Of a stretch of DNA of 64,000 nucleotides, positions 1 to 58,500 are shown piece by piece. Position 1 is the stretch's first letter. Every line of letters begins with the position of its first letter. Position numbers and translations under genes: made by a program. Origin of the DNA: Balanoglossus misakiensis (Eukaryota; Animalia; Hemichordata); NCBI GenBank assembly GCA_040954595.2, contig CM082592.2, positions 4,356,735 through 4,420,734 on the forward strand, read 5' to 3'. The notes beneath the pieces were generated by a model. That model had not been told where the DNA came from. It did no database searches and saw nothing but the letters and a program-made list of their open reading frames with translations.

Positions 1-3000
1 AAAATTCGCTAAGTCGAAAAATTGTCATTTTTTGATGATTTTCATGGGCTATAACCCATGATTTATTTAAAAAATCAAGAAATTTTGATATTTCGGAAAG
101 TCGAAAAATTGTCATTTTTGGATGATTTTCATGAGCTATAACCCATGATTTTTTTAAAAAATGAAGAAAATTTTAAAATTCGCAAAGTCGAAAAATTGTC
201 ATTTTTTGATTTTTTTCATGGGCTATAACCCATGATTTTTTTCAAAAAATCAAGAAATTTTGAAAATTCGAAAAGTCGAAAAATTGTCATTTTTTGATGA
301 TTTTCATGGGCTATAACCCATGATTTTTTTCAAAAAATCAAGAAATTTTGAAAATTCGCAAAGTCGAAAAATTGTCATTTTTTGATGATTTTCATGGGCT
401 ATAACCCATGATTTTTGTCAAAAAATGAAGAAATTTTGATATTTCGGAAAGTCGAAAAATTGTCATTTTTGGATGATTTTCATGAGCTATAACCCATGAT
501 TTTTGTCAAAATATCAAGAAATTTTGAAAATTCGCAAAGTCGAAAAATTGTCATTTTTGGATGATTTTCATGGGCTATAACCCATGATTTTTTTCAAAAA
601 ATGAAGAAATTTTGATATTTCGGAAAGTCGAAAAATTGTCAATTTTGGATGATTTTCATGAGCTATAACCCATAATTTTTGTCAAAAAATGAAGAAATTT
701 TGATATTTCGGAAAGTCGAAAAAATTGTCATTTTTTGATGATTTTCATGAGCTATAACCCATGATTTTTGTCAAAAAATCAAGAAATTTTGATATTTCGG
801 AAAGTCGAAAAATTGTCATTTTTGGATGATTTTCATGAGCTATAACCCATAATTTTTGTCAAAAAATCAAGAAATTTTGATATTTCGGAAAGTCGAAAAA
901 CTTTCATTTTTTGATGATTTTCATGGGCTTATTATAACCCTTGATTTTATTCAAAAAATCAAGAAATTTTGATATTTCGGAAAGTCGAAAAAATTGTCAT
1001 TTTTTGATGATTTTCATGAGCTATAACCCATGATTTTTGTCAAAAAATCAAGAAATTTTGATATTTCGGAAAGTCGAAAAATTGTCATTTTTGGATGATT
1101 TTCATGAGCTATAACCCATAATTTTTGTCAAAAAATCAAGAAATTTTGATATTTTGGAAAGTCGAAAAACTTCCATTTTTTGATGATTTTCATGGGCTAT
1201 AACCCTTGATTTTATTCAAAAAATCAAGAAATTTTGATATTTCGATAAGTCGAAAAATTGTCATTTTTGGATGATTTTCATGAGCTATAACCCATGATTT
1301 TTGTCAAAAAATGAAGAAATTTTGATATTTCGGAAAGTCGAAAAATTGTCATTTTTGGATGATTTTCATGAGCTATAACCCATGATTTTTGTCAAAAAAT
1401 CAAGAAATTTTGATATTTCGGAAAGTCGAAAAATTATCATTTTTTGATGATTTTCATGGGCTATAACCCATGATTTTTTTAAAAAATGAAGAAAAATTTA
1501 AAAATTCGCAAAGTCGAAAAATTGTCATTTTGGATTATTTTCATGAGCAATAACCCATGATTTTTTTCAAAAAATCAAGAAATTTTTATATTTCGGAAAG
1601 TCGAAAAATTGTCATTTTGGATTATTTTCATGAGCTATAACCCATGATTTTTGTCAAAAAATGAAGAAAATTTAAAAATTCGCAAAGTCGAAAAATTGTC
1701 ATTTTTTGATGATTTTCATGGGCTATAACCCATGATTTTTTTCAAAAAATGAAGAAATTTTGATATTTCGGAAAGTCGAAAAATTGTCAATTTTGGATGA
1801 TTTTCATGAGCTATAACCCGTAATTTTTGTCAAAAAATGAAGAAATTTTGATATTTCGGAAAGTCGAAAAAATTGTCATTTTTTGATGATTTTCATGAGC
1901 TATAACCCATAATTTTTGTCAAAAAATCAAGAAATTTTGATATTTCGGAAAGTCGAAAAACTTTCATGTTTTGATGATTTTCATGGGCTATAACCCTTGA
2001 TTTTATTCAAAAAATCAAGAAATTTTGATATTTCGATAAGTCGAAAAATTGTCATTTTTGGATGATTTTCATGAGCTATAACCCATGATTTTTGTTAAAA
2101 AATCAAGAAATTTTGATATTTCGGAAAGTCGAAAAATTATCATTTTTTGATGATTTTCATGGGCTATAACCCATGATTTTTTGAAAAAAATCAAGAAATT
2201 TTGAAAATTCGCGAAGTCGAAAAATTGTCATTTTTTGATAAATTTCATGAGCTATAACCCATGATTTTTGTCAAAAAATCAAGAAATTTTGATATTTCGC
2301 AAAGTCGAAAAATTGTCATTTTGGATTATCTTCATGAGCTATAACCCATGATTTTTGTCAAAAAATGAAGAAATTTTGATATTTCGGAAAGTCGAAAAAT
2401 TGTCATTTTTGGATGATTTTCATGAGCTATAACCCAGGATTTTTGTCAAAATATCAAGAAATTTTGAAAATTCGCAAAGTCGAAAAATTGTCATTTTTTG
2501 ATGATTTTCATGGGCTATAACCCATGATTTTGTTCAAAAAATCAAGAAATTTTGAAAATTCGCAAAGTCGAAAAATTGTCATTTTTGGATGATTTTCATG
2601 AGCTATAACCCATAATTTTTGTCATAAAATCAAGAAACTTTGATATTTCGGAAAGTCGAAAAACTTTCATTTTTTGATGATTTTCATGGGCTATAACCCT
2701 TGATTTTATTCAAAAAATCAAGAAATTTTGATATTTCGGAAAGTCGAAAAATTGTCATTTTTTGATGATTTTCATGGGCTATAACCCATGATTTTTGTCA
2801 AAAAATGAAGAAAATTTAAAAATTCGCAAAGTCGAAAAATTGTCATTTTTTGATGATTTTTTATGGGCTATAACCCATGATTTTTTTCAAAAAATGAAGA
2901 AATTTTGATATTTCGGAAAGTCGAAAAATTGTCAATTTTGGATGATTTTCATGAGCTATAACCCATAATTTTTGTCAAAAAATGAAGAAATTTTGATATT

Positions 3001-3520
3001 TCGGAAAGTCGAAAAATTTTCATTTTTTGATGATTTTCATGGGCTATAACCCTTGATTTTATTCCAAAAATCAAGAAATTTTGATATTTCGGAAAGTCGA
3101 AAAATTGTCATTTTTGGATGATTTTCATGAGCTATAACCCATGATTTTTCTCAAAAAATCAAGAAATTTTGATATTTCTGAAAGTCGAAAAATTATCATT
3201 TTTTGATGATTTTCATGGGCTATTACCCATGACTTTTTTCAAAAAATGAAGAAATTGTGAAAATTCGCAAAGTCGAAAAATTGTCATTTTTTGATGATTT
3301 TCATGGGCTATAACCCATGATTTTTTTTTAAAAATGAAGAAATTTTGAAAATTCGCAAAGTCGAAAAATTGTCATTTTTTGATGATTTTCATGGGCTATA
3401 ACCCATGATTTTTTTCAAAATATCAAGAAATTTTGAAAATTCGCAAATTCGAAAAATTGTCATTTTTTGATGATTTTCATGGGCTATAACCCATGATTTT
3501 TTTCAAAATATCAAGAAATT
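1..3520. repeat. AT-rich tandem satellite, ~87-88 bp monomer, about 40 copies, truncated by the window edge
   Basis: AAGTCGAAAAATTGTCATTTTT recurs at 11, 98, 185, 273, 361...; consensus ~AAGTCGAAAAATTGTCATTTTTTGATGATTTTCATGRGCTATAACCCATGATTTTTKTCAAAAAATSAAGAAATTTTGAWAWTTCGSA; ends abruptly near 3520. Confidence 0.97.
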
Positions 3521-6469
3521 TGTCTGTGTGTTATATTTGTACAATGTATTGGGATATGTTTTTTTAAAACTATTTATGTGTTCATGTGCCGGTGCTCTAA
3601 GTACAAAATACATATCCTTTTCTTCAGACGAGATACATAAGTGCATATAGTGAGGGACACGTTCATGAAAACAGTTCAGATGGTGTATTGTAGACGGGAA
3701 TATACATCTGGACAATATCATTTTTTGACCCCCCCCCCCTCCGCATTCTGTTGTCTGTGCCTTTCCTACTGGGTCTATATCCCGAATCAATGTGAAACGA
3801 AGTACCCGTTTCACTTTATCAAGAGACCGTGAACCACTTGGTTTAATCCTCTGAACAAAGCCAGGAATAACAGGCCTTAATGGTGGATAGCTTACAGTCA
3901 ATAGAAGGGAAGGGGTCTTAAAAGAGGGCTATCCTCAATGCAGCTGTTTCACCCTGAACCGGGGGAGATTTTCTCAATTGTTGTACGGCTCAGCACTTTC
4001 ACTAGGCTAACTAAATATTATTCCTAGCATTGTCGTCGTCGACACAGATGCAGTACACCAATCGACAAACACAAACAACGCCCAGACACCCTTTGAATTA
4101 GAAAACTGGGCGTAAGATGACGGTCACATGACCAGGCGGTTTAAACAGGCAAACACGCGTTTCAATATAAGCTTATACATATATTTATTGCAAATACAAG
4201 TGTTATCACAAAACATATTATGAATATGTAATAAAACGTTGAAAAGGGATCATCATTAAACAGGATAAAAAGTGCAGTGGTCATCTAATCCAGGATATTC
4301 CAGCCTTTTGCTGAAATGCCGAATGGATTATTTCAAGTTCAATGACACAAAATGACACAGGTTGGCCCGAGCAAGCAAGCCCACCTCGAACGTCACATAA
4401 TCACTGAGCTTACATTGTTCTTACAACTTTTCTATCTGTCTAAAAGTTCGGTCTGCGATCAAACCAAGAAGAATACTGTACGGTTACCGTAAAACGATCA
4501 GTATTGTCGTAAAGTACGACAGGACGCGCATCCCCTCCTTTCTGACCCTGGTGTATACCACCAAGGTCGAATTAGGGCACGTCACCAAATAAGATTTTCA
4601 TAAATAAACACCGCGTCTCTAGTACATGTTACCAAGGGTTAACCCGAATATCAATATTTTACATTCTCGTCAAAGTCTTAATCAAACATACAATCGGCAT
4701 TGTAAGGCACTACTCTTTTCTGAGTCAACATACATTTACTATTATGCGTCATTTTTCCTACGCTTGACATACTCTACAAAGCAATAGACAAATTTCCGGA
4801 CATCGCGATACCCTACGAGATCTCGCGTGGCTAGGCATTTTATATGGTATGACATTCTCATGTGACGCAGTCGCAGGACAAACAGATGACCCATTGTGTT
4901 AAACGTCACTAAAACTACAATTATTGTTCAACTTTGTACCTATTCTACTTTCATACAAAGTTTGAATTCTATCACATGGCTATCAACCCGTTGCTACGGT
5001 AATTAACCAAATCTCGCGAGATCTCGTAATAAGCGGAAAATCATCTTTTGATTTTGAATTTGAGGTGCTATAGTAAGTTATGGTTTGCATTTTTTCCTTT
5101 GCATATATGATACGAGTTGGTCGGATATCTTTAACCTGGATCATACAAATCCAGTTACAATCGATACTCACAGAACCGAAGATTCTTAAAAATGCATTCC
5201 TGAAATTTGTGTTCATTACCGGAGGATTTTGTGAAATGTTCTTCTAGTTTCCAGTTACAGTTGCTACTCTGAATATTGCAAAGCAATCTGTATAACGCTG
5301 TCTGTACTAGGTCAATGTGGATAACTGATGAAAGATCTTCTTTAAATTCGAGTATCGAGCCAATATAGTTCCAAGTTCCATACGAAAACAATCACTTAGA
5401 AACTCAATATTGTCAATACTGGCGGGCTGTATCGTTCTGTTAGTGTTGTGATGTTATACAATAGATGCGACAAACATTCATATCCAAAGGAAAATAATAA
5501 AAGAACGAAGAGAAAATATAGGCAAACACAAAACTCCCAAGTTAATTGTGGAATCAATACGGAAGATTGTCAAAACAAGACGCTGATAGCAAATGACAAG
5601 TTAAGTGTGATACTAAGGGTATATGTAACAGCAAAAAAAATCAGGCGAAAATGATCTTTTGACTGGGTTTTTTGTAAATTAGACCTTAAACGACTCTTGG
5701 GTCGACAATGCACAATGTATATAGTTGCATTCCCAAACATATCATACATTTAAAAATATGTAGACTATAAGATTTGTGAACTAAATATTAAATCACATGA
5801 AAAAAGCTGATCTGAAACGGGCTATCATGCAACCTTAAATATTGTGGATGAAATAAACGTTTGTAATTGAAATTGTCATTCTCGCTTTGTTATACATGTA
5901 ATTTCCTTACTTAGAATAATCGTTGGACTAGATTTGACGTCTCATTAACTAGTTGTTTGCGCAGGCGCAGAACCGTCGACGGATGCCCTTGACCGCGGCC
6001 TTGACTACTAGAATGCATTTGAATTTTCTCTGAACAGCCTTCACTCCTTAAAATACTGAGAATTATTTGAATTTGTTGGAGGGATATAGTAACCCCTTAC
6101 TTGAGTTTTCTTCAAAACGAGACAATACTGTAGATGGTACTTACAAAACAAAATAGTGTGATTTTAAAAACAAACAAACAAACAAACAAACAAACAAATC
6201 AATGAAAGTTAAACGTAGTATCAGAGGCGTTTTTGTAAAATCATCTGTGACATACAACATTTAGTAACAGCCATCGAAAAAATTGAGAAATGTCAAAAAA
6301 TATACATACAATTAACTCAATGTGTAAAAATAAATCTTGCTATGTCAAGTGAAGCATCGAGTTAAAGTGATGATGATTCAAGTAAAGGTAAACAGATTTG
6401 TCGAAGATGTGTCAAAGTTCCAGTACATGTACTCCCTGCCAGGTTTGTAGCTACAGTAGACGAAGTCGT

Positions 6470-24160
<17,691 letters not shown>

Positions 24161-32633: not shown

Positions 32634-35600
32634 GCAAGTAAGCAATCAAGCAAGCAAGCAATCAAGCAAGTGATCGATCAATGATCGCCCAATCAATCAA
32701 TGTTTGATTGACTGGTTGCATGGTTGGTTGATTGTTAAGTTGGTTGGTTGAGTGAGCGTGATTAAACGGGACCAACGGGCCAGTTTTAGTGTGTAGTCAG
32801 TATTAATCGGTTCCACACGCATCAGTATAGCATATACCTACCTCGCGGAGTTATGTGGTCAAAGGCGTACGGACGGGATCTCTCGATAATCTCGAACAGA
32901 ATGATAGCAAAGCTATAGATGTCCCCCTTCTGAGTTCCGTACACGGGCGGGAAGTTCATGCGAAGAAGTTCAGGCGCAGTCCAAAGCTTGCCTATGATAA
33001 AAGAGGGTAAGAGATAATATGTTTAGGCTGATACTGAAATAGTGAAACTTGTGAGGGAATCAACATTAGCCTATCGAGTACGGAATACCATAGTTTCTGG
33101 GAAAATACATGTAATACTCGTCTGAGAGCCTGGGCAGAATTAACAGGTGGCTGGTGCGATGATGACAAACCATAAACAATGTGTTCTGTACTGTTTCCAT
33201 TCCTTTCATGGTGTTTTAGACCCTTCATGGGTGCACCTTTAAATTTTCAAAAATACCTTACCCAAATAAAGTTCATGTTCATCGGCATTAACGTTTCTGG
33301 CTTGACCCTGCATAAAGCTCTGGAGACCGTAGTCGGTGATTTTCACCACCCATCGGCTGTCAATCAGGCAGTTGGATGATTTCAGGGTGCCGTGAGACCC
33401 GTTTCCGTGTTTGCTCTTGTGCAAGTACTCCAGTCCCTATGGAGGCATTGACAGAAGATTGTGAAATTGCTGTCAGAGCCGTTACAGACGTTATATGCTG
33501 AATGGCATCATACTAGTATTTGCAGTTTTGCTGAATGCACAGATTGTATCGTCGCTAGACATTTTCGTATTTTCAGACAAAGGTCAACAATGCCTGAAAG
33601 CATCGACAATTAAACGCCCACGATTACCTAATGCGCATGTGCGTAATTTCGTGTGTACAAACATTACGTCCAATCCAAATGTTCTGCAAATTTTGCGTTC
33701 GACGCATGCAAATAGTGGACTGCCTTCGCTTCCTTTCATATTTCATGCGTACCATATAAGTAGCCTCTTGTTTTATCCCTGACCCAATTTTCTTTCTTTT
33801 CCCGATCTGCCTTATAGCAATGACTGTATACATTTTTTTGTTACCAGAGTCTCTGGTTTGGCACATGCGCATGAGACGATCGTCGGCCTTTAAACTTATT
33901 TTTGTCACCTTTATTATATCAGCGAAGAAAGAAACTTTGAAGGCACGGTCGAGTTTGATGTCGTCATTCTCCAACACATCCTGTTGAGGAGACAGAAAAG
34001 GCGTCAACATTGGAGTACTTTCCACATATTGTCAACAGTAACACTGCATTTGGCAAACATATTCGAAGGAAAATAATTCTAAGGAGTGAAAGGGCAAGAA
34101 ACGTCAGCGACAGCGGGTCATGTGATGATACCAATTCAGTTTCATTTTCTTCAAAGGTTGGTTCAACCTCTGACCTTGCCTGTGGCAAGGTTCACGTTGG
34201 GAATCATGGCCCATAAATATACATGCAATTTAAACGAAATTCTCGCTAACTTAAAATAGCTTTTATACATGATTGGAGGGGTCAAATCACATAATAATAT
34301 CAACACATTGGTATTTGCTCTGTCACAAAATTCCAGTTATGCAGTATGATCAACATCAATTTAACTTATGAACGACGACCATCTTGAAATTTTGTCGACT
34401 GCTTGAGAATTTTCTCACTCACCTAGGTAGTAAAAAAACTACTTAATTCAGTGATGGTATATGAAAATATGGGTCGGGGATATTCAATCATTGTCTATAG
34501 CTAGCAAAGTATAATGCGCCTCGAAATTTAATGCTTTTTTATTCAAAAGCACGTCACAAGGTTTTAGTACAAGGTAAGAAATAAGATTTTTTTTATCTTA
34601 CAGACGTCTCGAGGCGCATGGTACCTTGTCGAAATTTACATATAGTACCTGTAGACTTCCTTTGTGGCAATATTGCCAGACCAGGCAGAGATCGGGATAT
34701 ATAACACAAGCCCCGAAAAATATATTCAGGTTTTCGTGATTGAGTTGACGTATCTAAAGTAGAAATGTAATACACACATTTGCACACAACAGACCAGTTT
34801 CACGACCCTTGCGTGACCTATTTCAAGACGGTGTTTTTGGTGGTATGTGGCGACCGAAGTTCAATTTGTTTGTTGCGACAAACGTCAACATTCCCTGAAG
34901 ATGAGATAGAGTGGAGGGGGGTTCAATTAAAGGGAAGGGGTCGTCGCGCCGCGTGGGTGTCCCTCTTGTTGAGAATATGTCCTCCCATACCAGCACAAAC
35001 CCCACTACAGTCGCCACGACCTACTAGGATCTGCAGTTGCTGTCATGCCCAGTCTACGCTACGGTTGGCTGCTTCGTTCATTCTAAGAATTATCTTATTT
35101 GAGGGATTTGTGGATGAATTGTAATGTTTATAAACAAACAAACGCGGCGTGACGACCCCTTCACTTTAAGTGCAAGTGCAAGGTCGTCGAAGAGGTTTCA
35201 AAGAACTTTGAACTGGTGGATTCATACCAGCAAAAACAACTGCATGGTTGTAAGGTCACGTAGAGTCCATGAAAATGGCGGAGAACAAACAAACTACCTG
35301 TAGGCTCCCTCTGGCACAGTATTGCCACACTATGAAGATGCAACCGGGATCCACGCATGCGCCGACGAAATTGTTCAGGTTCTCATGATTTAACGTTCGT
35401 ATCTGGACGAGAAAAATCGCGAATTACAATGGTTGTACCATGACACAGGGCAATACGATTGAGCTTGCACAGTCCGCCATCTTCTTGTCACTCATGTGCA
35501 CTGCAGCGATTAGTTGTGTACAATTTGAGAGTTGTCAATGTTATCATAAATTAATGCATGCATTCGACACGCGAAATGTGATTTTTACCCCCCCCCCCCA

Positions 35601-38600
35601 AAAAAAAAAATAAAACTACAAAAATGTAAATTTCGTTACAATTCAATCATGGTCACTCCTACTTGCTGGCCATACAAAAATTCAAAATAGTTGGATAGAC
35701 AGATTCAGGGTGTCAAAATTGTCCCAATTTAATACATTTCACATTTCGTTAAAACGTCAATAATTTGACTGAGATAGCCCCTAGTGACCTCTATCCTGAA
35801 TGTCAAAGTTGTACGGCAATACGTGTGGGTTTTTTAAAAGAAGCCTAGTGTATTGACCTACGATGGACAGATGATGTAAGCACAGCGGACGACGATGGAC
35901 AGTCGAACTGCCCGAAAAGTGCTACGTCAATGACAGCTGATCTAAAATTTGCTCAAAATATAACATTTCAGAATATATTGGGGAAAATCGGATTTAGATC
36001 ACAACTGCGGACCAGCATACCAAATTAATCGGGCAGGTGTATTCTGAGAAGAACACATCAATTTTTTTACCAAATCGGTAGAGATTGCCCCTAAAATAAA
36101 ATTCCCAGTCGTCAGAAATTGAACAACTATGGCTCAGATGATCCCCGGTGGCACGTACACCAAATAGCAACGCTAATATGAAGAGTGGTTTCTGAGATGT
36201 CGGTTGTTGACGAGCGGAAGCTGAACACCGCCGTCATCGGACGTTGGTGTGGACAGGAAGAAATGCCTTACTGTATCGTGTTACTGTATCGTATTACAAA
36301 ACAATCTGGCATGTTACTCACAATATAAATTCACACCACTACAGTGAAATCAAATCGAGGACACGCAACTGTCTATATGGTGTATTACACGTTTACTGGG
36401 ACAGAGAGAAGAATATAGTTATTCCCTTCGGCTAAGAAAGCGTCTCGATTTACACCTTTCATAAAATCCGCAATTATCAAAACGCCTCAAGTATACACGC
36501 GGGGAAATGAAAATCACCCATTGTGATCTGTAACCATCTGCTCAGACTATGTTACCATGGCAATTGCCTCGCGAGAATTTTAAAATGTCGCTACTAGAAG
36601 TAGCCGGCTGTGGTACATGTGAAAATAAAAATTCATCGATAAAATGAGTTATTAGACTTGCAAAAAGGTGCGCCACCATGGCCTTTGTTACACTTGGACA
36701 CGCCTTTCCAACCATATACGGGCAAATGTAAATTAGAGGTGATTGACAGGGTTACCTCACTGAATTCCACCAGTACTGTGCGGTTGATTTGCATGTGCTC
36801 TTTGTTTATCTTCTTGAGCGCCACTTGCACGCCTTTGTAAATCCCTGTCTTGCAGAAATATTGCACGCTCCGCGACGTGGCGTTGCTCTCAACGCCAGTG
36901 CCGTTGGAACCAGTGGATCCCACGTTGCTTGCGCCTGGCTTATTCAGACTTCCCTGAAGAGGACGACAACAAACTAGTCAAATTTGCTCGATAAACTACT
37001 ATAAAGCACGGCAGCAGAATGATTATAGCAGTCGGTTCCCGATTATAGGTAATTACATTATTCGGCTGATGATCGCCCTGTGAGTAGCTGCAATAATTGT
37101 AGCCTTGGTCACGGTGGGCTGGTTTGATCGAGCTGCATGATGGCCACCCAGCTCGATCAAACCAGCCGGCCGCCCACTAAGGCTACAGTTATCGCACCTA
37201 CTCTGTGAGCGGCGTGAAATTCTCGGCACCGGACAATTTTCAATAGTTTATACTTGAAAAAAGCTGCCAAAATATACACACGACATGTATAACAGATATA
37301 TCCCATGTGTTAGAACATTTCCCAGCAAAAATGAGATTTTAAAATTGCCTGTGCAGGGAAACTGTACAATGGAGATACAATTGTGTAATCCTGGCACCAC
37401 CAGTCGACAGCATAAAGTACAGTGAACTTGAACTCGCGCGAGCGTACCTGACTGTTGCTACCTGTTCCACGGTGTGACCCCAAATTCAAAAGCTGTATTT
37501 CGTCATAGAGAATTCGCCATCGCATGTTTATCAGGTCTGCTTCGTACTGAAAATGCCTGAGAGGAGAAGGTTGACGTAAATGATATGCAAATTCAAAGTT
37601 GCAAAAAGGTCAGTCAGAGTTCAAGACTAATGCATGCCCTGCACCTGCAGCGACAAGAACTGACCAATCAGAAGCAACCTTACCTAATTATAATATTATA
37701 TACAATAGCTCGGTGGTAAAATGTTATAATGCAGGTGGTTCTGAAATATTGCCAACTGTTTTTAAGCGTAGATCAAGAAACCAAAGTCAACACACCGACA
37801 GCAGTACAACTACTCTGCCGCCCGCGAGTATCCGAAATCTTTACCCACCTAAAAAGATACACAAACAGAATTGTGCCGACAACAATGACCAATGCACCAG
37901 CAGCGAACGATATTATGTAGATATAGGTATCTGCAGAAAAAGGGGGAAATGAGACAACCGTTAGAAACCGTCCAGAGTTTTGTAGTTCGATTGTTGTCTT
38001 TTAATACAAACAGTGACACGCATTTGTAGCTCCTGAGCCGGCCTTGCAATGAAGGGCACAGTCAGTGACAGCTTCCAGTGGGGCGTATTGAATGGATAAT
38101 GGTCTGGGCAGTATTACGTGCGGGGGGGGGGGCACTGGTGTTTTTTTTTAAATCTAGATCCACGAAAAATAGCGACCTCCTCCATAATCTGTTCATGAAA
38201 AAAGACATTTTCGGGGTTTGTTTTATTTTCTGTACTTACAGTCCTCGCCTTTGCACAGCTCGCCGTCAAATCCACAGATTGGTGTATCGGGAGGCGCGAA
38301 CTCATGACCCACGCGCCCATCTCCCCAGCGAGGTGGTGAAATATGACGCATTATCTGCGAAGGAGAAACGCAGATTGGATCCTACATTGGCAATCTATAT
38401 CCATAGTATCTTTGATCACATATCTTGTAAATTTGAAAGTGAATCGGTGAACGGTATAAATGTTCGAACGCGCCGGTAGCTATAGGCAGAAACTGTTTTC
38501 AGTATCGTTTTATTTTTTATTTCCTCCAGTGAAGACTATTCTCTGAGGTACAAGCTGGCATTTATTTATGTCATGTATTATCGGTATAGTTTGTCCCGTT

Positions 38601-41600
38601 GTCTCCTTATCATAATTTCGAATGTGTACAAATTCGCCATTGCGGAGAAATATCCCACAATACCCTGCGTGGTACTTACACGCGTTCCATTTTCCAGGTT
38701 CAGTATTTCAGATATCTTCTCGAAGATTCCATTAGATTTCAAGTCTGTAATCCAGTAATCTGGTTCGCGGTCGCCAAACTCGTCCATGAGCAGGTTACCT
38801 GTCATCCCTTGCGAATAAGAGGGTTTGGAAGGAAGGACAACATTAAACTAGTCTGTCATTTGAAATGTCTAAGAAATTTGCATTGTATTCACGGAGGTGG
38901 TCGTCTTGAAGTCTTGGTTGTGACGTCACACGGCGGCCATTTTAATTTGCTCAGAATCCTGACAGTATGGCAACTCTGGCTGCGTTAAATAGGTGTGTAC
39001 AACTCACCGTAGTAAGGGTTTGAAGAAATGATGTATTAAAACATTCTTTCTTGTATTTAACATATTAAACTCATTGAACTTTTCTTTTTCACATTTTGTC
39101 ACTTTTTACACAAAGTTTCAGAATGACCCAGTATCACTTTAGCTAATGAACTTCCAAAAATCGGCCATCTTGAAATTGTGTCGACTATATGAGATTTTCA
39201 CCACTCACCTAGGTAGCCAAAACCTATTTAAGATAGCGAGAATATTGGCGCATACCTTACCCTTTGCACGGCGCTGCCAGAGGTAGAATTCGGACAGGGG
39301 AAGTTTTACTAGTACCCTATTCAGACTTGGACTGATGAGGGCGTTGTTCAAGTGGCTCGTAGAATTTGAATTCAATGATTTTCTGTGAAAGTGCTCAAAC
39401 TGCAATCGCACTTACCTTTGAAAAATTTCCCAGACATAGCCTGCAACATCACTTCGCCATCACGGTAATCGTTGCCATTGGATACAGTCTCGTTGAGTGC
39501 GATGACGTAAAGTATTAGGGCATCGTGGAGAAAGGCGGCGTACTTATTACCCTGCGGTAAATCAGAGATTGGAAACACGTGACAGTGCACTTGGTTCTCG
39601 CATCATATACCTGGATGTTACGTCCCTGTATAACTCTATATAGGTACGTGCAGTTTTTTCCTTTGTTATGTACTGTGTGTTTTGGGGGTGTATAACAGAC
39701 CAACCCGGTTCGGTTGCGAGCCCAAATAACATCGGCGCGCATTCCTGAACTATTTTCTTTCTCATTCCTCCGCGCGCGTTGTGTTATCCGTAAACGTTCT
39801 GTCCGTAAAGCGCATTAGCTCGCAGGCCTCATCATGGCTTTGATGGTATAGCTACGCGAAAAGCTTGCGACAATGACCAAGCGGGAACTATATCGTTGCA
39901 AATATTAAAAAAAAAAATTGTGGCTGGCCAAATTTGGCCACCCACACACGTACATACATAAATATACTTACACCTGATATTGTTCGTAAAGTTGACCCAC
40001 TCTATAAATATATAAATGCAGGAATGCGTTTTAGATCTGTTATGAATATCGGTCGCTCACCATAGCCGTGGAAATTTGGTTCCCACTGATCATGTATTTG
40101 CCGGTTTCAAGGACCCCCGTCAACAATGTCAACAGCAGAAAAGATGAACTCGACCACGACCATGACTCGACAAATCGATCTTGCCGCTGTTTGTTTTTTT
40201 GCACTGACACCGACAACGTTTTTAATGACAACTTCTGCGGATGGTCGAGAACGATTACTTGCAACGCTATCAGTCCTAGGTCTGCAACTGTGTGACACAT
40301 CATCTCCCGCAACATATTGTGCGACGTGCCAACAATTTTAGTGAATCGACGCGTCAAAAAGATCCGTCACGCGAAGATATTCAGTTCATATCTGGAGCCA
40401 TTATTAAACCATTGTTGAATCACTTTTCTTCAGACCTGACACTAAGACACTGTGCCATCAAATTCACGCCTACGTCAATTATATTTGTATTGCAATACTA
40501 TCCAGTATGGCCGATAGGCGGCCATTTTGTTACGATTTTTCATGTCCAGAGCACTTTCATACACTTCGCGACACAAACCAATATGGTCGTCCGGTGGCCA
40601 TTTTGTTTTGATTTATTGTCGTCTGGAACAATTAATCAGACATATCTGAGCCGACATTGGCATAGATATTATATTATACACGTTCAATTTGTGACATGAC
40701 ATGATCCGATATGATTTCATTCCGACAATATGCTTGCCTATCACTCAAAACTGCCAGAACCATTTTATAGTTGACTCACGGGTATAATCGCGTTTGACTG
40801 AAGAGCTATGGCGTGTTTGTGTATTTCAGTTTGCATAATAATATGTACAAATGTGGCTGCCAGGTAGCCATTTTGATAAATTAAACACGATCCAGCGGGA
40901 ACTATGTCATTGACAACAATGACATTGTTAAGCCTTGGCTACTGTCGTTGCAAATATTTAATATTTTTCCTTTTTGGCCGGCCAGGTTTGATCACCTACA
41001 CACACGTACATACATGAACATACTTACAGCTGTTATTGTTGGTAAGGTTGTGAGTGACCCATGCTATAAACAAATGCAGAAATGCGTTTTAGATCTGTTG
41101 TGAATATCGGTCGCTCACTATAGCCGTGAAAATTTGGTTCGGGTTGGGAGAAAGGAATCCCACTCACTCCCCTCCTTTGCCTATAGGTGCATGCCAAGAA
41201 ATGCGCAAAAACGTTTTCAATGTCCAATACCTTGATCCCTTCCTGTAGAGTCTGGTTCCAGGGGGCGTCCTGTAAACGACGCGCCACTTCAATTGTGAAA
41301 TCGTCGATTTGTCTGCCACTCAATGCTGCCAGCGAGACCTGGGAACATTAAAGGTACACTGGCTCTAATTTTTGTTATTTGGTCATTTGATTTTTTTTCT
41401 GAAAATGATGAATATAGAGATCAATAGAACTCGTCCAAATTTCATATTAGTTACCAGATACCTGTCCACACCCTTCAGCATGGATTCAATAACTGTACAA
41501 GTTCACACTTAAAGATGACACACTTACATGAAACACCGACTCAAATGCCTGCCTGGCTTCATCGTTTCTTCCGTCGTCTCCTAGATACGTCTCCTCCGCC

Positions 41601-50400: not shown

Positions 50401-52441
50401 AAGTCTGTCCGTATCTTGGTAAATGTCGGCCTGGCGTCGCTGTTCTCGCTCCAGCATCTGTACATCAGGTCGAGCACGCCGTGGTCAAAGTCGATCCCTT
50501 CCACGCCGATCTGTGACGTGGGTCGAAAAGGTGTACTCTCGCCATTTCGGATACGATTGACCACATCTGTAACAAAAAATAGAACACGCCGGGTGACCCA
50601 TCGACCGAATAGCGATAAACTTGCCATGTATTAGTCTGCTGAATGAAATATGGATACAAAAAAAAATTTAGTAATTAAAGCTCCATAGCTGTAACTTTGC
50701 GCCATGTTTTCCATATTTTGTTTGGTGTATCTACTGCGGTTTCTTGTTCAAATCCCTGAAATATGATGAAATGCCCAGGCTATATGTTGGCACTCGGAGT
50801 ACTGGGTGTATTATCATGCTGTTTGGAGTAGAACAGAACAGAACAGGACATTGCATTTGCTGCACAGAACAATAATACTGAAAATAAAGCCAAAAGTTAC
50901 ATCTAAGGTCCCTTTAAAAAGTCTGTGCACTTTCCCCTTTAAATGGCACAGTACTGGAACTAAATGATAACGTAGGGCCAGAAAGACAACATTCATCTAC
51001 AGATACAATCCTGACAGTTTCATCGGTGCTCACCTCGTGGAGTTATATTGTCGTACACGAAGGGCGGGGCTCGTTGGACAATCTCATACATGATTATAGC
51101 AAAACTGTAGACGTCGCCTTTCTGTGTGCCGCCCGGAGGAGGAAAGTTCATGCGAAGGATTTCTGGAGCTGTCCAAACCTTACCTGAAAAAAGAGAAGTG
51201 AATGTGAGAAAGAATAGCAAAGAGTGATTTCTACCGTAAGCACACACTTGCGTAAAATATAAGCAACCAGGCTTCAATTTGCCATTTCGTATTTTATACG
51301 GCTAACGCAATAAGAACTATTCTGGGGTTACAAGACACTTTATAGTGTTTGTAAAATAGATTCAATTCTGCAATGCTTCCCTTTAAATATTCTTCCTGGA
51401 TTTCACTGGGAACGGTGAGGGGTGTCTATACAGTAGACTTACACATGAACCTCTCCTGGTCGTCGATGTCACTCGAGGATTGGCCTTGCACAAAACTGGG
51501 CAATCCGTAGTCTGTCACTTTGACAATCCATCGGCTGTCCACCAGACAATTGGACGACTTCAGGCTGCCGTGGGCGCCAAAGCCGTGCCTGCTCTTATGC
51601 AAATATTCCATTCCCTGCGAAAAAGGATAAAGGGAGAGACTCAGGACCGGTACCGTTAGATGTTTGCCTATTGGAGATGCCCATGCATGTGCTAGGTAGT
51701 CCAAAATTGCACTGTTCTGTTTCTCAGTCTCCCAGCAAGAAACTAATATTTCATAGATCCTGGACTGGCAGAGGTTAATGACATCCGGGTCAAACATTCA
51801 GTTAATTTATATCATTGTCATCGCCCAAACCCCTAACCCACCGTTTTATCAAACCACTCACCCAACTTCCCTCCCTCCCCCCCCCCGGAGGCCATCTTGA
51901 AAATGTGTCGACCATATGACATTTTCACCACTCACCTAGGTAGCAAAACCATATTTAAGGTAGCGAGAATTGAGATCAGGTTTCAAGAAACTCAATAATG
52001 GAATTGCTATTGTTGAGAAGGCGATTAATTTTACCTTTACTGTATCAGTCATGAAGGATATTTTGAAAGTTGAATCTAGTTTGATATCATCATTCTGGAG
52101 GACGTCCTGTAAAAGACAATATGGGTTATATTCACAAACATTTGGACATATGAATAGCGTAAGATAAAAATAACGAACAACTCTTTCTCTGTGTAACAAC
52201 CAAACAAACAACAGACAGCAGTTTGGACATTGGGCTAGACCTAAGTGTCAATTACAGAACCGAATCATCCTACCTGTAAACTTCCTTTGGCACAATATTG
52301 CCAAGCTAAATAAATGCTGCCCGTCTCAACGCATGCACCAATGAAAGGATTCAAATTGTCGTGGCTCAACTGCCGAATCTAAAATAAATTTAGAAAGGTT
52401 GAATGTTAACTTTTAATTTTATTCATGATGGTGATGATGAC

Positions 52442-52509
<68 letters not shown>

Positions 52510-55500
52510 GACTGCACATACTCATACATACACAAACACACATACATACATACATACATACATACATACATACATACATACATACATACATACATACATA
52601 CATACATACATACATACATACATACATACATACATACATACATACATACATACATACATACATACATACATACATACATACATACATACATACATACATA
52701 CATACATACATACATACATACATACATACATACATACATACTAAAATAGATGCGTGCAGGTCACGTACACCAAGTGTTTTGCAGCGTGGGGAAATGTAAA
52801 AGAAAAAAGATAGAGGATCACACGACTGCTCTTAGGTTGTTCATCAATATGATGAGTTTACAAAGTTTCGACGTTTCACCCCATGATTAGGGCTTATTCG
52901 TGCATATTTAATTATAACTAACCTCATTAAACTCAAGCAACACGGCCCTGTTAACCTGAATGTGTTCCTTGTTGATTTTCTTCAGGGCGATAGAAACACC
53001 TCGATACGTGGCTGTTCTGGCGAAGTACTGCACAGTGCGATTGGATGGGGCTGAACTCTTGCCGTCAAAACTGCGCTGTGAGGTACTGGATGAGTGTTTA
53101 GACATGGCAGATGGCGAATGTGAACCCGAGGTACCCGGCTGTGAGAGAGAGAGAGGGGGGGAAGAGACAATGAGACAGAGATAGAGAGAGAGGGACAGGA
53201 AGAGTATTGCACAAAATATGATGTAACCTACTCCGAATGTTGACGTCACAGAGTAGACGTGACAAATAAGTCTACAGTTTCAAGCAGTCTCTATGAGGAC
53301 ATCGATGGGTGATATATATATGGCCAGAACATTCTCATTTGAGAGTACGGTTAGCGTAACAAAGAGTGGTAGAGGTATTTATTTGCAGGAAACATCCGTA
53401 ACAAGGGCGTGTATAAGAGGTGTGGTTTATCCAAATTGGTGCAAATAATATTCATGCCAATATATGATGAGACATTCAGTGTTGCACCATCAGGTATTGA
53501 CGAAAATTGATACAGATTGAAGGGATATAAAACGTGTGTAAATATTCGTTCTGTATACGTGATTTAAAGTAGATCGCAAGGCGAATGGTGTGAGGTTAGA
53601 TCAAACTGGCATTGTTATGTTTTATCGCATCAACAAAAATACTGAATGTAAATTTCACGCATGTGTCGAGGAAATTTGTCAATATCTTACATGGCTACCC
53701 TTTTCAAGAGAACCGAATTTTCCAAAACTGCCGGAACCTCCAGAGATGAACCGGACCTCTTCCATGTGCACCTTCCATCTCATGTTCAACAGCTCGCCTT
53801 CAAATTTGCTGCGCCTGAAACATAGATGTAAAAAACTAGTTAGAATATTGTCATTTTCCTTATGTTTATATATATTGTTTATCACTTAATGTTAAAGTGA
53901 ACCGACACCTTCCTTGTAGAGAGATTCTAATAAAATCTTTGTGAAAAACATGAGTGATTTGCGTCGTTTTTATTCACTTTCACTTATCGCGCAGCAGCGT
54001 AGCGTCGATCTCGATATGCAGCGTGACGTCACAAACTAGTCACCAGTAGCAGACGCCACCGTGCGCACGCTAACGTACACAGACAGTTGACATGGGTGGC
54101 TGCCTCGCAAGTGGGAGCAAAAACAGAGTTGGCAAAAACACGGCGAAAGGTTTTATAAAAGTTCCCGACCCTTCAGGGACAGTCAAAATGCAAATCGAGC
54201 TGGAAATTGGGTGTCAAACATTGGCATATTATTTCGGTGCTTATTGCTGAGACAGATGATACTTTTGCTTCGGAAATGTTCGTGTTCAACTAGGCCCTAT
54301 ATCGTGAAGCATATTGCAAAAAAAAACTACACAGCAAAAATTGTCGAAACAGCCGGGGCTCCTGATTACCTTTGATCACCATATGACGAAACCGATTTTT
54401 TGGCACTGTAAATCAAAACTCTGATCGGAAGAAAGTAGTGTGGCGGAAATAGGCCTACTAGTGAACACTGTGTTTGTCGCGTACCCAAGCTGTGAATGCA
54501 TCGCAAAACCATTTCCAAAGACAAAAACGACCACCTCTACCATCTGGAAGCACCACAGATGTACTCGAAACATGACAATCGGAGTTTCTGCCTCCCTTTG
54601 ATCAACAAAGCCGCATCTTTTCACAGCTGTTGATCAACGTAAAGGATGGTAGACACGTGTGGTAGACATTTTCGCGAGAGTGTCAATAGGTTTACTTTCT
54701 ATTCTTTTGGGAAATCACGAGGGTGCCTATTATGACATGGGTGACTAAATGTCAAAAATTATCGCATGGCTTCGTGATATGTCGTTCAAGTCTTTATCTA
54801 ACGGCCTTGTCAAGAAATCTATTTCATGGCAGCACCGGCATTCCTTGACAGTAGAAATAACTTCGCATTTACCGCAGCGCAGCTACACCATGAGCGTGAT
54901 GAAAGACGAAGCCGATCACTCTTCTCGATCGTCTTTGCTGTCTACACTTGCCTCTGTACTATTGGAATCAGTTTCACTTGAGTCGCCTACCATCTCATCG
55001 CTGCTGTATTCGGGTTCGTACAAAAATCCGACGATATCTTCGTTTGAAAACTCCATATCGCGTGGTCGTTTTTGTCTTTGGAAATGGTTTTGCGATGCAT
55101 TCACAGCTTGGGTACGCGACAAAAACAGTGTTCACAAGTAGGACTATTTCCGCCACACTACTTTCTTCCGATCAGAGTTTTGATTTACAGTGCCAAAAAT
55201 TCGGTTTCGTCATATGGTGATCAAAGGAAATCAGGAGCCCCGGCTGTTTCGACAATTTTTGCTGTGTAGTTTTTTTTTGCAATATGCTTCACGATATAGG
55301 GCCTAGTTGAACACGAACATTTCCGAAGCAAAAGTATCATCTGTCTCAGCAATAAGCACCGAAATAATATGCCAATGTTTGACACCCATTTTTCAGCTCG
55401 ATTTGCATTTTGACTGTCCACCGAAGGGTCGGGAACTTTTATAAAACCTTTCGCCGTGTTTTTGCCAACTCTGTTTTTGCTCCCACTTGCGAGGCAGCCA

Positions 55501-58500
55501 GCCATGTCAACTGTCTATGTACGTTAGCGTGCGCACGGTGGCGTCTGCTACTGGTGACTAGTTTGTGACGTCACACTGCATATCGAGATCGACGCTACGC
55601 TGCTGCGCGATAAGTGAAAGTGAATAAAAACGACGCAAATCACTCATGTTTTTCACAAAGATTTTATTAGAATCTCTCTACAAGGAAGGTGTCGGTTCAC
55701 TTTAAGGACAGCGCATAAGAGCACTTTTCTTGCGGTAAAAAGACATATCATCGATCGTGAATGTTTTACTTACCGGTATAACCAAATGCCAAGGGTTGTA
55801 ACCGCGCCGGCCACAATAAAACTGGCGGCAAAGGCAGCAACGTAGATGGATGCATCTAACAAAAATAGACGTGGCTTTAGACTGTCATTTTCTCGTACGA
55901 ATGTTTTTGCTGAAAGGCCGACAATCGTCTCATGCGTATGTGCCAGAACAGTATATACTATACTTACAGTTATTTCCTTTGCACCCCGAAAAGCCGCACA
56001 CGGGCGTGTCCGGCGGGGCGTACTGGTGCCCGACCTTGCCACCCGGCCACCGAGGTTCCCGAAGCTGGCGAAACACCTGAAACAGAACATTGAAACAGCT
56101 TTCAGTCCAGCTGCGCGCGTCCCTCCCACAGAATGGTTCGAACGCGTTGCTTCGGACTCCCGCCAAATAGGTCATCACAGAACATGCAGGAGGTCGTTGG
56201 TGACCGTCTCTAAGGGCAGTTTATTAATTCAATAGTCAGTGTGTCGACCTCATTTCTATAGACTGCAGTCTATAGAAAGTTGTTCAAACTAATAGCTCGG
56301 TGATTGGAAAGTATCCGCGACCATGGACAAGTCAAATGTATGCGTGCTGTACTGTTAATGGACCAGTGAGTCAACACCTTATGTATATACACGTGTCATT
56401 CTTTCAGCATCGAACAAGATGCGGCCAGTGAAGATATTATAAATCTGATTGTTATCCCCAAATAACGCCTGTTGTACCCCAATAATGCCTCATCTTACCC
56501 TTGTACCATTATCCAAGTTCACAACTTCAGAAATCTTCACAAAGACGCCGTTCGGTTGCAGATCTGTGATCCAGTAATCCGGCTCCCGGTCGCCGAATTC
56601 GTCAATCAGGACATTTCCGGTCATCCCTGCAATAAGTTTTGACAAATTTAGTGAGATAATGTTTGCAGAAACGCTGTGTTCATAACTAATATAATGGTAA
56701 CATTTAGCATAGCAGAACTATAATGTGTTAATCAAGAACAATATTATCGCCTATACTATTAGTTCAATGTAATGCACTTTAGCACATCAATGTTGTGTAA
56801 TCTATATAAATCAATTTGATTATCTGAAAACTAATGTTTGTTGATTTTTGCAGTTTCCAGTATGTTTCACACCATGGCCAATGGTTTTCGTGTAATTAGC
56901 AAGAAAGATTACACAACTTGCGATTTTTAAGAGAAGCATAGTGGTAAAGGATTGTACCAGCTCTGAAGCTCACTATTATATACCTCAAATTTTAGACATC
57001 TTGCCAATCACAAATTTTTACCCTAGGCCAGGCAAATTAAAAAGACACGTCTTTTTATGCACTGTATATGGCCAAATGATAATTAGTGGTTACCATTTAC
57101 CATGGAAACCTTCAAATGCCGTAGTTATGGTTACCAAGTGATCTGCAGCGGGCCTCCCTGTGGTGTATCAAATCAAAACCGCACTATCGATCGTTGGAGC
57201 AGATTAATGTACAATTCTTTAAAAAACCCAAATGTCAACTGAGAGACACTTTGCTACCTTTGAAGAATAAACCGGAGAGAGCGTTTGCGATAATCGTGCC
57301 ATCTCTGTAGTCGAGACCCTGTGACACTGTCTGATTTAGAGCAAGCACGTAAAGAATGATGGCGTCGTACAGGAAGGGGGCGAACTTATTGCCCTGGAAG
57401 AGAGAGAAAGGCATAACGAGCTCGTCTTAGAAAACGGTGAAGAGTATATACGACAAGTCGGTGTCCAATCCTGTCAGAGACCCTCATTTTGCGTGATAAC
57501 TGGAGCCCATCAAAACTCAATCTGGTTAAAATCAGGTGTAGGGTACGCCGACGTCTTTTACTTACACGGTACGGTATTCTTAACGGTCGAATGTATGGTA
57601 TGATATTATACCGACGAAAACTACCAAGATGGGACGCAGGCATAGTGATCGTAAAGGGGTTCGCATAGTGAATGTCGCAAGACAGACGGCTTTACCCAGC
57701 TCGGTTGCCCCATTTTGATGACTTCAATGATAACGGGCTAGAGTAACGATATAATGAGGGTCTCAGACAGAACTAAGCGTTTTCACAGAGGAGCCACTGC
57801 CAACCACAATTGAAGGTAATTCTCGCTCACCAGTCAATGGGTACTAACATCGCCTCTTGCGTCACAAAAAGACAATTATCTGACAACATTTCACATTGCA
57901 ACCTTTAAATGCCGGTGACAGTGGCTCTTCTGGGACTGCCACATGCGTGTATAGTACCTTTGAAGAATTTATTTCGCATAGCGTCGAGCATAACCTCGCC
58001 ATTTCTATAATTTTTCTGAGCAGCGACAGTTTCGTTGAGGGCGAGGATGTATAGTATCATAGCATCATAGAGGAACGCAGAATACTTGTTGCCCTATCAA
58101 AAGATAAAGGGTCGTCAAATTCACATTGTAGAAAAAAAATACATGTATTATGTATATATTTCCGATTCTCACATTCGCTTTATATATTACCTCCCAGAAG
58201 AAAGCCCAGTATAACGTTTCCCAGGTATAATCTTTGATAATAAGTACCTGACTGTATTCCTGTCATTTAATTTCCTTGAAGTAAAAGAACATGGAACTTA
58301 TGCAGTTGTTATTAATTGTGAATTTAATTAAAGTCACCAAAATATATGTATGTATTCCAAAATTGAAATTCGGTGAGCGAATATAAGTTCGCGACGTACC
58401 CCCTCCCCTCCATAAGTTTATGGACTTCGCATTTTGAACTTCAGCAACAATCTTGGACAGTCCCGAAGTTGTCGGCGATAGGCCAAGTTTGGCCAATCTC

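Follow-up and report, generated by a model that had tools for sequence, protein, structure and literature searches.

Our study showed that the 13th coding exon of a receptor guanylyl cyclase gene of the acorn worm Balanoglossus misakiensis is present as two tandem copies, 13a and 13b. The reading that we favour, and consider rather probable, is that the pair is an old tandem duplication in an intact gene, maintained by selection and likely used one copy at a time, with competing RNA folds of the intron between the copies enforcing the choice. On their anatomy and the pattern of selection, as read from the gene sequence, the two exons would belong with the tandem-duplicated mutually exclusive exons.

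The window, by which we mean the whole 64-kb stretch of DNA analysed, carries three receptor guanylyl cyclase genes in tandem, all on the minus strand, the duplicated exon lying in the middle one:

62112-47400, minus strand: gene 1, a receptor guanylyl cyclase of the tandem cluster
43901-27546, minus strand: gene 2 (rGC-2), a natriuretic-peptide-receptor-like guanylyl cyclase with 24 coding exons, 1095 aa with either exon 13
24160 to about 6470, minus strand: gene 3, a receptor guanylyl cyclase of the tandem cluster

By its domain set and cyclase motifs, gene 2 is an intact receptor (transmembrane) guanylyl cyclase. An extracellular ANF-receptor domain, one transmembrane helix, a kinase-homology domain, a coiled coil and a cyclase domain are all present in its open reading frame, and it keeps a KVETIGD-type motif at 927 and RYCLFGDT at 999, with the E of KVETIGD and the C of RYCLFGD, which we take to be the guanine-specifying residues. 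The pseudokinase catalytic loop, HGTLKSSNC at 660, is without the HRD aspartate. The Glandiceps ortholog (P0001) matches PF01094, PF07714, PF07701 and PF00211 and aligns to human GC-A with an E-value of 2.7e-218. In a quick tree of 26 proteins chosen from about 130, built with exon 13 left out, gene 2 grouped with Ptychodera flava P0008 (support 99; 81% identity) and was joined next by Glandiceps P0001 (98) and then by Saccoglossus P0124 (94); gene 1 grouped with Glandiceps P0003 and three Saccoglossus proteins, and gene 3 with P0011 and P0010. The named proteins nearest to the window genes are those of acorn worms. Four related cyclase models lie on one 276-kb contig in Saccoglossus, and the Glandiceps orthologs of genes 1 and 3 have consecutive accessions. 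Gene 3 has an exon (11013-10821) without the intron that divides exons 19 and 20 in genes 1 and 2 (193 nt = 124 + 69), and a satellite array with an 88-nt unit in about 40 copies occupies positions 11-3521 of the window.

Two equal-length, stop-free, AG/GT-flanked exons had been noticed in gene 2 in a preliminary description of this DNA, and their coordinates and translations were confirmed, on the minus strand and at 105 nt each. The surrounding gene structure is as follows:

36756..36953, minus strand: exon 12, with the beta3 lysine (VALKK) and alphaC; phase-0 end at 36756; weak donor GAG/gtaacc
35298..35402, minus strand: exon 13a, 105 nt, phase 0-0, ccag/ATA...CAG/gtagtt
34754..35297, minus strand: intron between 13a and 13b, 544 nt
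34649..34753, minus strand: exon 13b, 105 nt, phase 0-0, ttag/ATA...CAG/gtacta, weak donor
33909..33980, minus strand: exon 14, phase 0-0, starting at 33980

A six-frame profile scan of the window returned exactly four exon-13 segments, one in gene 1, one in gene 3 and two in gene 2, with scores of 92-104 against a best background of -0.5. The single exon 13 of genes 1 and 3 has the same length and phase as in gene 2, and the scan turned up no additional copy of either exon 13 or exon 7 in the window, intact or decayed. Beginning 21 nt past the 13b donor is a 20-bp local hairpin (34628-34607 with 34526-34505), and the intron downstream of 13b also holds one copy of a short dispersed repeat, about 70 nt long and with about 80% identity between its copies (34376-34446, 39162-39231, 16777-16846 and 51892-51948).

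The gene structure makes it likely, in our judgement, that 13a and 13b are mutually exclusive; each mRNA should carry a single copy, since the kinase fold should not survive the doubling or loss of its alphaC-beta4-beta5-hinge segment. Several of the established devices for such exclusion do not apply here. The preliminary description argued from the 0-0 phase that double inclusion stays in frame and that NMD cannot enforce exclusivity, and the reading frames agree: the protein would be 1095 aa long with 13a or 13b, 1130 aa if both were included and 1060 aa if both were skipped, so that all four combinations are in frame and NMD was rejected as the enforcer. Incompatibility of U2- and U12-type sites was rejected as well, the donors gtaacc, gtagtt and gtacta not being of the U12 type when compared with the U12 donor consensus. 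A linear steric lock of the alpha-tropomyosin type was rejected on the 544-nt length of the intron, linear steric interference being described in the text of PMC5740500 for distances of under about 50 nt from donor to branch point. No YTRAY motif that could mark the branch point was found in the last 130 nt of this intron, its only two such motifs lying 132 and 174 nt from the 13b acceptor, and a non-consensus distant branch point is possible; YTRAY is also absent from the last 70 nt in 34 of 69 window introns.

The 544-nt intron contains nested inverted repeats and is predicted to fold into one long rod (-172.1 kcal/mol, z -4.30, equalled by 0 of 100 shuffles). The predicted elements of this fold, and of an alternative to it, are:

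35473..35484, minus strand: element upstream of 13a, forming a 12-bp helix with 35271-35282 that loops out exon 13a
35268..35282, minus strand: shared switch element, pairing with 35473-35484 (encloses 13a) or with 34793-34804 (closes the rod)
35223..35267, minus strand: 5' arms of two rod helices, the middle and the outer, pairing with 34804-34847 at probabilities of 0.96-1.00
35142..35172, minus strand: 31-nt 5' arm of the inner rod helix, with 28 Watson-Crick pairs to 34924-34954
34924..34954, minus strand: 3' arm of the inner rod helix, pairing with 35142-35172
34793..34847, minus strand: 3' arms of the rod base and of its outer and middle helices, with 34793-34819 as the counterpart of the arm 35253-35279

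With the rod closed to its base, the 18 nt left free past the 13a donor and the 39 nt ahead of the 13b acceptor would be too short for 13a-13b joining, and 13a would be spliced to exon 14; in the alternative fold, 35268-35282 would pair upstream instead and enclose 13a, and exon 12 would be spliced to 13b. The rod-closed and 13a-enclosed folds are 4.6 kcal/mol apart, and the 13a-enclosing helix has a pairing probability of 0.97 in context and ranks first among 66 internal exons (9 of 2000 shuffles). Helices that surround 13b do not stand out, with ranks of 16-22 among the 66. By rank measures that were chosen after the fold was seen, the intron comes first of 57 introns of 220-830 nt in confident long-range pairs (34 pairs spanning more than 70% of the intron, the next having 20) and second of 62 in the duplex between intron ends (0 of 300 shuffles). 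An Rfam search gave one match, at E 0.7 and far under threshold. Hairpins that shorten an intron often favour its splicing instead of blocking it. In our estimate, the proposal that RNA structure is the device enforcing the exon choice falls just short of an even chance.

Exclusivity could also be imposed by splicing proteins acting with weak sites, the rod being a palindromic mobile-element remnant or a chance fold-back and stray products being removed at protein folding; we think this unlikely. It would fit with the frequency of inverted repeats in window introns, 10 of 69 having a higher self-complementarity z-score (several of them repeats or microsatellites), and with the missing strand asymmetry of the rod, the opposite strand folding equally well (z -4.49) and the five arm pairs holding 5 G-U pairs versus 4 A-C mismatches, which does not favour the transcribed strand. 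Most human clusters are, in the account given in the text of PMC5740500, unexplained by steric or frame mechanisms. An origin in a mobile element or by chance is harder to reconcile with the uniqueness of the rod, no copy of the 544-nt intron having been found elsewhere in the window. The best pairing in the rod is internal rather than terminal, and no target-site duplication was seen by eye; the rod covers nearly the whole intron, and an independent helix, that enclosing 13a, overlaps its base.

Both copies bear the marks of selection. The preliminary description had read the divergence of the nucleotides alongside the retention of motif residues in this way, and the substitution rates and a simulation of neutral decay bear it out. 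The copies are identical at 64 of 105 nt and 23 of 35 aa, with 25, 26 and 13 of the 35 codons identical at positions 1, 2 and 3, respectively, pS being 0.87 (saturated) and pN 0.25. Because silent sites are saturated while pN is low, both copies are, to judge from these rates, long kept by purifying selection. All eight columns conserved in at least 90% of 73 homologous segments are kept in 13a and in 13b, and the profile scores of the two (88.7 and 85.9) are within the natural range, 14 and 11 of the 73 segments, respectively, scoring lower. The simulation counted a copy as intact if it retained splice sites, frame and at least 23/35 identity. At 0.5 changes per site, 0 and 1 of 20000 runs ended with an intact copy, and from 0.75 changes per site upwards none of 20000 did.

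It is quite improbable, we believe, that one copy, more likely 13b, has recently gone out of use and that only the other is spliced in. Such a history would be in keeping with the weaker donor of 13b, which is above only 3 of 65 constitutive donors (16 of 65 score below the moderately weak donor of 13a), and with its residues F13, I18 and Y19, which are rare among the 73 segments of the family. Weak donors are frequent in alternative exons. A very recent loss of one copy is compatible with the simulation, since 44% of neutral copies were still intact at 0.1 changes per site. The intact set of eight invariant columns and the saturated silent sites, which imply that both copies were kept long, speak against disuse, as does the fact that a non-acidic residue at exon position 18, found in 3 of the 73 segments, is common to 13b and the Glandiceps ortholog. 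That both copies are still used is, in our opinion, very likely.

The ortholog models hint, at the level of protein models, at an old pair that has been annotated one copy at a time. The Glandiceps model has one exon 13 (VVPPHLYLVW), which is 13b-like, and that of the Saccoglossus model (VDVGNIYVLW) is like 13a and gene 1. In an exon tree on 35 columns and 21 rows (omitting NPR2_P0040, Bla_P0021, three more backbone rows and the Ptychodera model without the exon), 13b joined the Glandiceps ortholog segment (81/84), and 13a joined the Saccoglossus ortholog, the gene 1 group and the annelid Dimorphilus (80/79); this tree is weak, and the AU test (p 0.27) leaves room for a recent shared origin in which 13a and 13b are sisters. 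The distance between 13a and 13b (23/35) equals that of each to the exon 13 of gene 1 (23/35). In Ptychodera flava, the RefSeq model of P0008 (XP_070573591.1) joins exon 12 to exon 14 without exon 13, which may mean that the exon is truly skipped, that it has been lost or that the annotation slipped where an exon is duplicated. Annotation pipelines appear to give one copy or none at the orthologous loci of XP_070573591.1, XP_077978153.1 and XP_077863909.1, and no isoform pair differing at exon 13 was present in the nine hemichordate clusters examined.

An exhaustive protein search with 13b returned 255 matches at E <=0.001, with no identity to 13b above 67% among the 150 listed; several short matches stop at SLQ/V, as exon 13 does. 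Doubled exons were not found in the 14 matches inspected, the cases with several matching stretches being repetitive ORFs, two-kinase-domain proteins and short fragments. No candidate came from a word-based protein search in which exon 13b was extended by five intron-coded residues, and a metagenome scan reduced 173 pattern matches to one locus with a 12-residue match, which was set aside as unrelated.

The Ptychodera model, together with the open frame of all four combinations, could be taken to mean that 13a and 13b are independent cassettes, proteins with both (1130 aa) or neither (1060 aa) being made on purpose, for example as ATP-uncoupled or dominant-negative cyclases. We regard this as highly improbable: the segment is core N-lobe, and the models are imperfect, that of Ptychodera being truncated at its N-terminus (711 aa) and that of Glandiceps appearing to be without the transmembrane exon. 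An assembly artefact, with two haplotypes or a collapsed paralog set side by side, has a practically negligible chance and was rejected: 41 of 105 nt differ between the copies, their silent sites are saturated, no similarity links the introns on either side, and exon 13 alone is doubled.

If the two copies are exclusive, as we favour, the gene would exchange one defined part of its kinase-homology domain. Exon 13 aligns to residues 556-589 of human GC-A (NPR1) and on this alignment, combined with the Src-family kinase numbering, presumably covers the alphaC-beta4 loop, beta4, beta5, the gatekeeper and the hinge. The preliminary description placed the segment in the beta4-beta5-hinge part of the fold that lines the ATP site; the location stands, and extends from the alphaC-beta4 loop to the hinge, whereas the implied tuning of the ATP site is made less likely, the gatekeeper and hinge being identical in the two copies (WQYC at positions 26-29, together with GSL at 32-34). 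The 12 residues that differ are at positions 3, 11, 13, 18-24, 30 and 31, and seven of them are consecutive (18-24), in the beta4-beta5 loop and the start of beta5. By a statistic chosen post hoc and applied to related sequences, none of 781 natural pairs with 10-14 differences differed at all seven of these positions. In the GC-C-Hsp90-Cdc37 structure, as the text of PMC10400071 describes it, residues 528-544 of the unfolded N-lobe are inside the Hsp90 channel. These correspond to exon positions 16-32, by a match made by eye on the YC.RG motif, and contain nine of the 12 differences. The exchange would leave the nucleotide pocket unchanged and swap the beta4-beta5 surface of the N-lobe, and the altered surface could change domain stability, handling by Hsp90/Cdc37 or partner contacts and, through these, the set-point of the cyclase. 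From the positions of the differences, we infer that ATP binding would distinguish the isoforms less than the surface, stability or chaperone handling of the N-lobe. All three window genes and some annelid relatives have a tryptophan at position 26-27 (WQ or WH, compared with TE in GC-A), which we take to be the gatekeeper position, and this tryptophan could narrow the nucleotide pocket of the subfamily.

A second duplicated exon is found in gene 1:

57958..58093, minus strand: gene 1 exon 7a, extracellular domain, 136 nt, phase 0-1
57258..57393, minus strand: gene 1 exon 7b, 136 nt

The two share 24 of 45 aa, again with saturated silent sites (pS 0.75, pN 0.31), and their donors are weak (of 65 constitutive donors, 3 have a lower score than the donor of 7a and 4 a lower score than that of 7b). 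Inclusion of both causes a frameshift with a stop after 372 aa, so that on reading frame NMD could apply to this pair. For the 7a-7b intron the predicted fold is likewise a rod, accompanied by a hairpin, with a weaker signal (z -2.5, 2 of 100 shuffles). Both copies are closer to exon 7 of the gene 2 orthologs than to that of the gene 1 orthologs. Intron 10 of gene 1 is filled by a 644-bp inverted repeat (55062-55705 and 53892-54534, 98% identical), which is either a fold-back element or a recent inverted duplication.

We know of no duplicated exon in the human GC-A and GC-C genes. Gene 2 shares its domain order with human GC-A (NPR1; PDB 9bcv) and GC-C (PDB 8fx4) and, unlike GC-A, belongs to an invertebrate subfamily with Trp-Gln in place of Thr-Glu at the gatekeeper and hinge. 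The closest kinase-fold example, as far as the text of PMC9741552 describes it, is FYN, where tandem duplicated mutually exclusive exons give rise to FynB and FynT. In both genes, on that description, the duplicated exons are in the N-terminal part of a kinase-fold domain, and as the FYN paralogs kept one copy, gene 1 here seems to have only a 13a-like one. FYN, on the same description, is an active tyrosine kinase in which the exons run from the SH2 linker to the ATP site, whereas here the domain is a pseudokinase that regulates a cyclase, and both copies have the same residues along the nucleotide site. The equal length, phase and homology of 13a and 13b, their place in a folded domain and their age are features that the texts of PMC5740500 and PMC8373072 give for known tandem mutually exclusive exons; unlike those, exclusivity here comes from gene structure rather than from transcripts.

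Competing RNA structures also have precedents. In Lepidoptera, exon choice in 14-3-3 reportedly involves both inter- and intra-intron pairing, and Dscam exon 17 is said to combine steric hindrance with RNA structure. Pairings that compete for a shared element and loops that enclose an exon are described in the texts of PMC6071210 and PMC11802352 for the docking site and selectors of Dscam and for exons 7a/7b of human ATE1. Gene 2 would resemble these systems, so described, in having one element with competing partners and a predicted exon-enclosing loop. It differs from Dscam, 14-3-3 and ATE1 in that its main structure lies wholly inside the inter-copy intron and is known from prediction in one species. 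We found no report of duplicated exclusive exons in any guanylyl cyclase in open-access full text, and no cyclase is named in the main texts of PMC8373072 and PMC9741552. What is new here is the guanylyl cyclase case; tandem exclusive exons and structure-based exclusion were already known.

For the question of how the kinase-homology domain sets the output of receptor guanylyl cyclases, the natural pair of exons in gene 2, with 12 differing residues and none in the gatekeeper/hinge core, offers a ready test of whether the beta4-beta5 surface tunes the cyclase. The locus further offers a compact setting in which exon choice can be tested, with two in-frame exons, a long intron, neither NMD nor linear steric hindrance applicable and a specific RNA switch predicted. 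In its most complete form, our proposal is that the pair predates both the split of the acorn-worm families and the duplication of genes 1 and 2, that the RNA element either folds the 544-nt intron into a steric block or wraps 13a, and that the isoforms differ in a loop handled by Hsp90/Cdc37; all of this together is speculative, and we would not expect every part to hold. If it were true, the chaperone dependence and basal activity of a pseudokinase would be set by exon choice and, with exons 7a/7b of gene 1, exon duplication would have struck receptor cyclases repeatedly.
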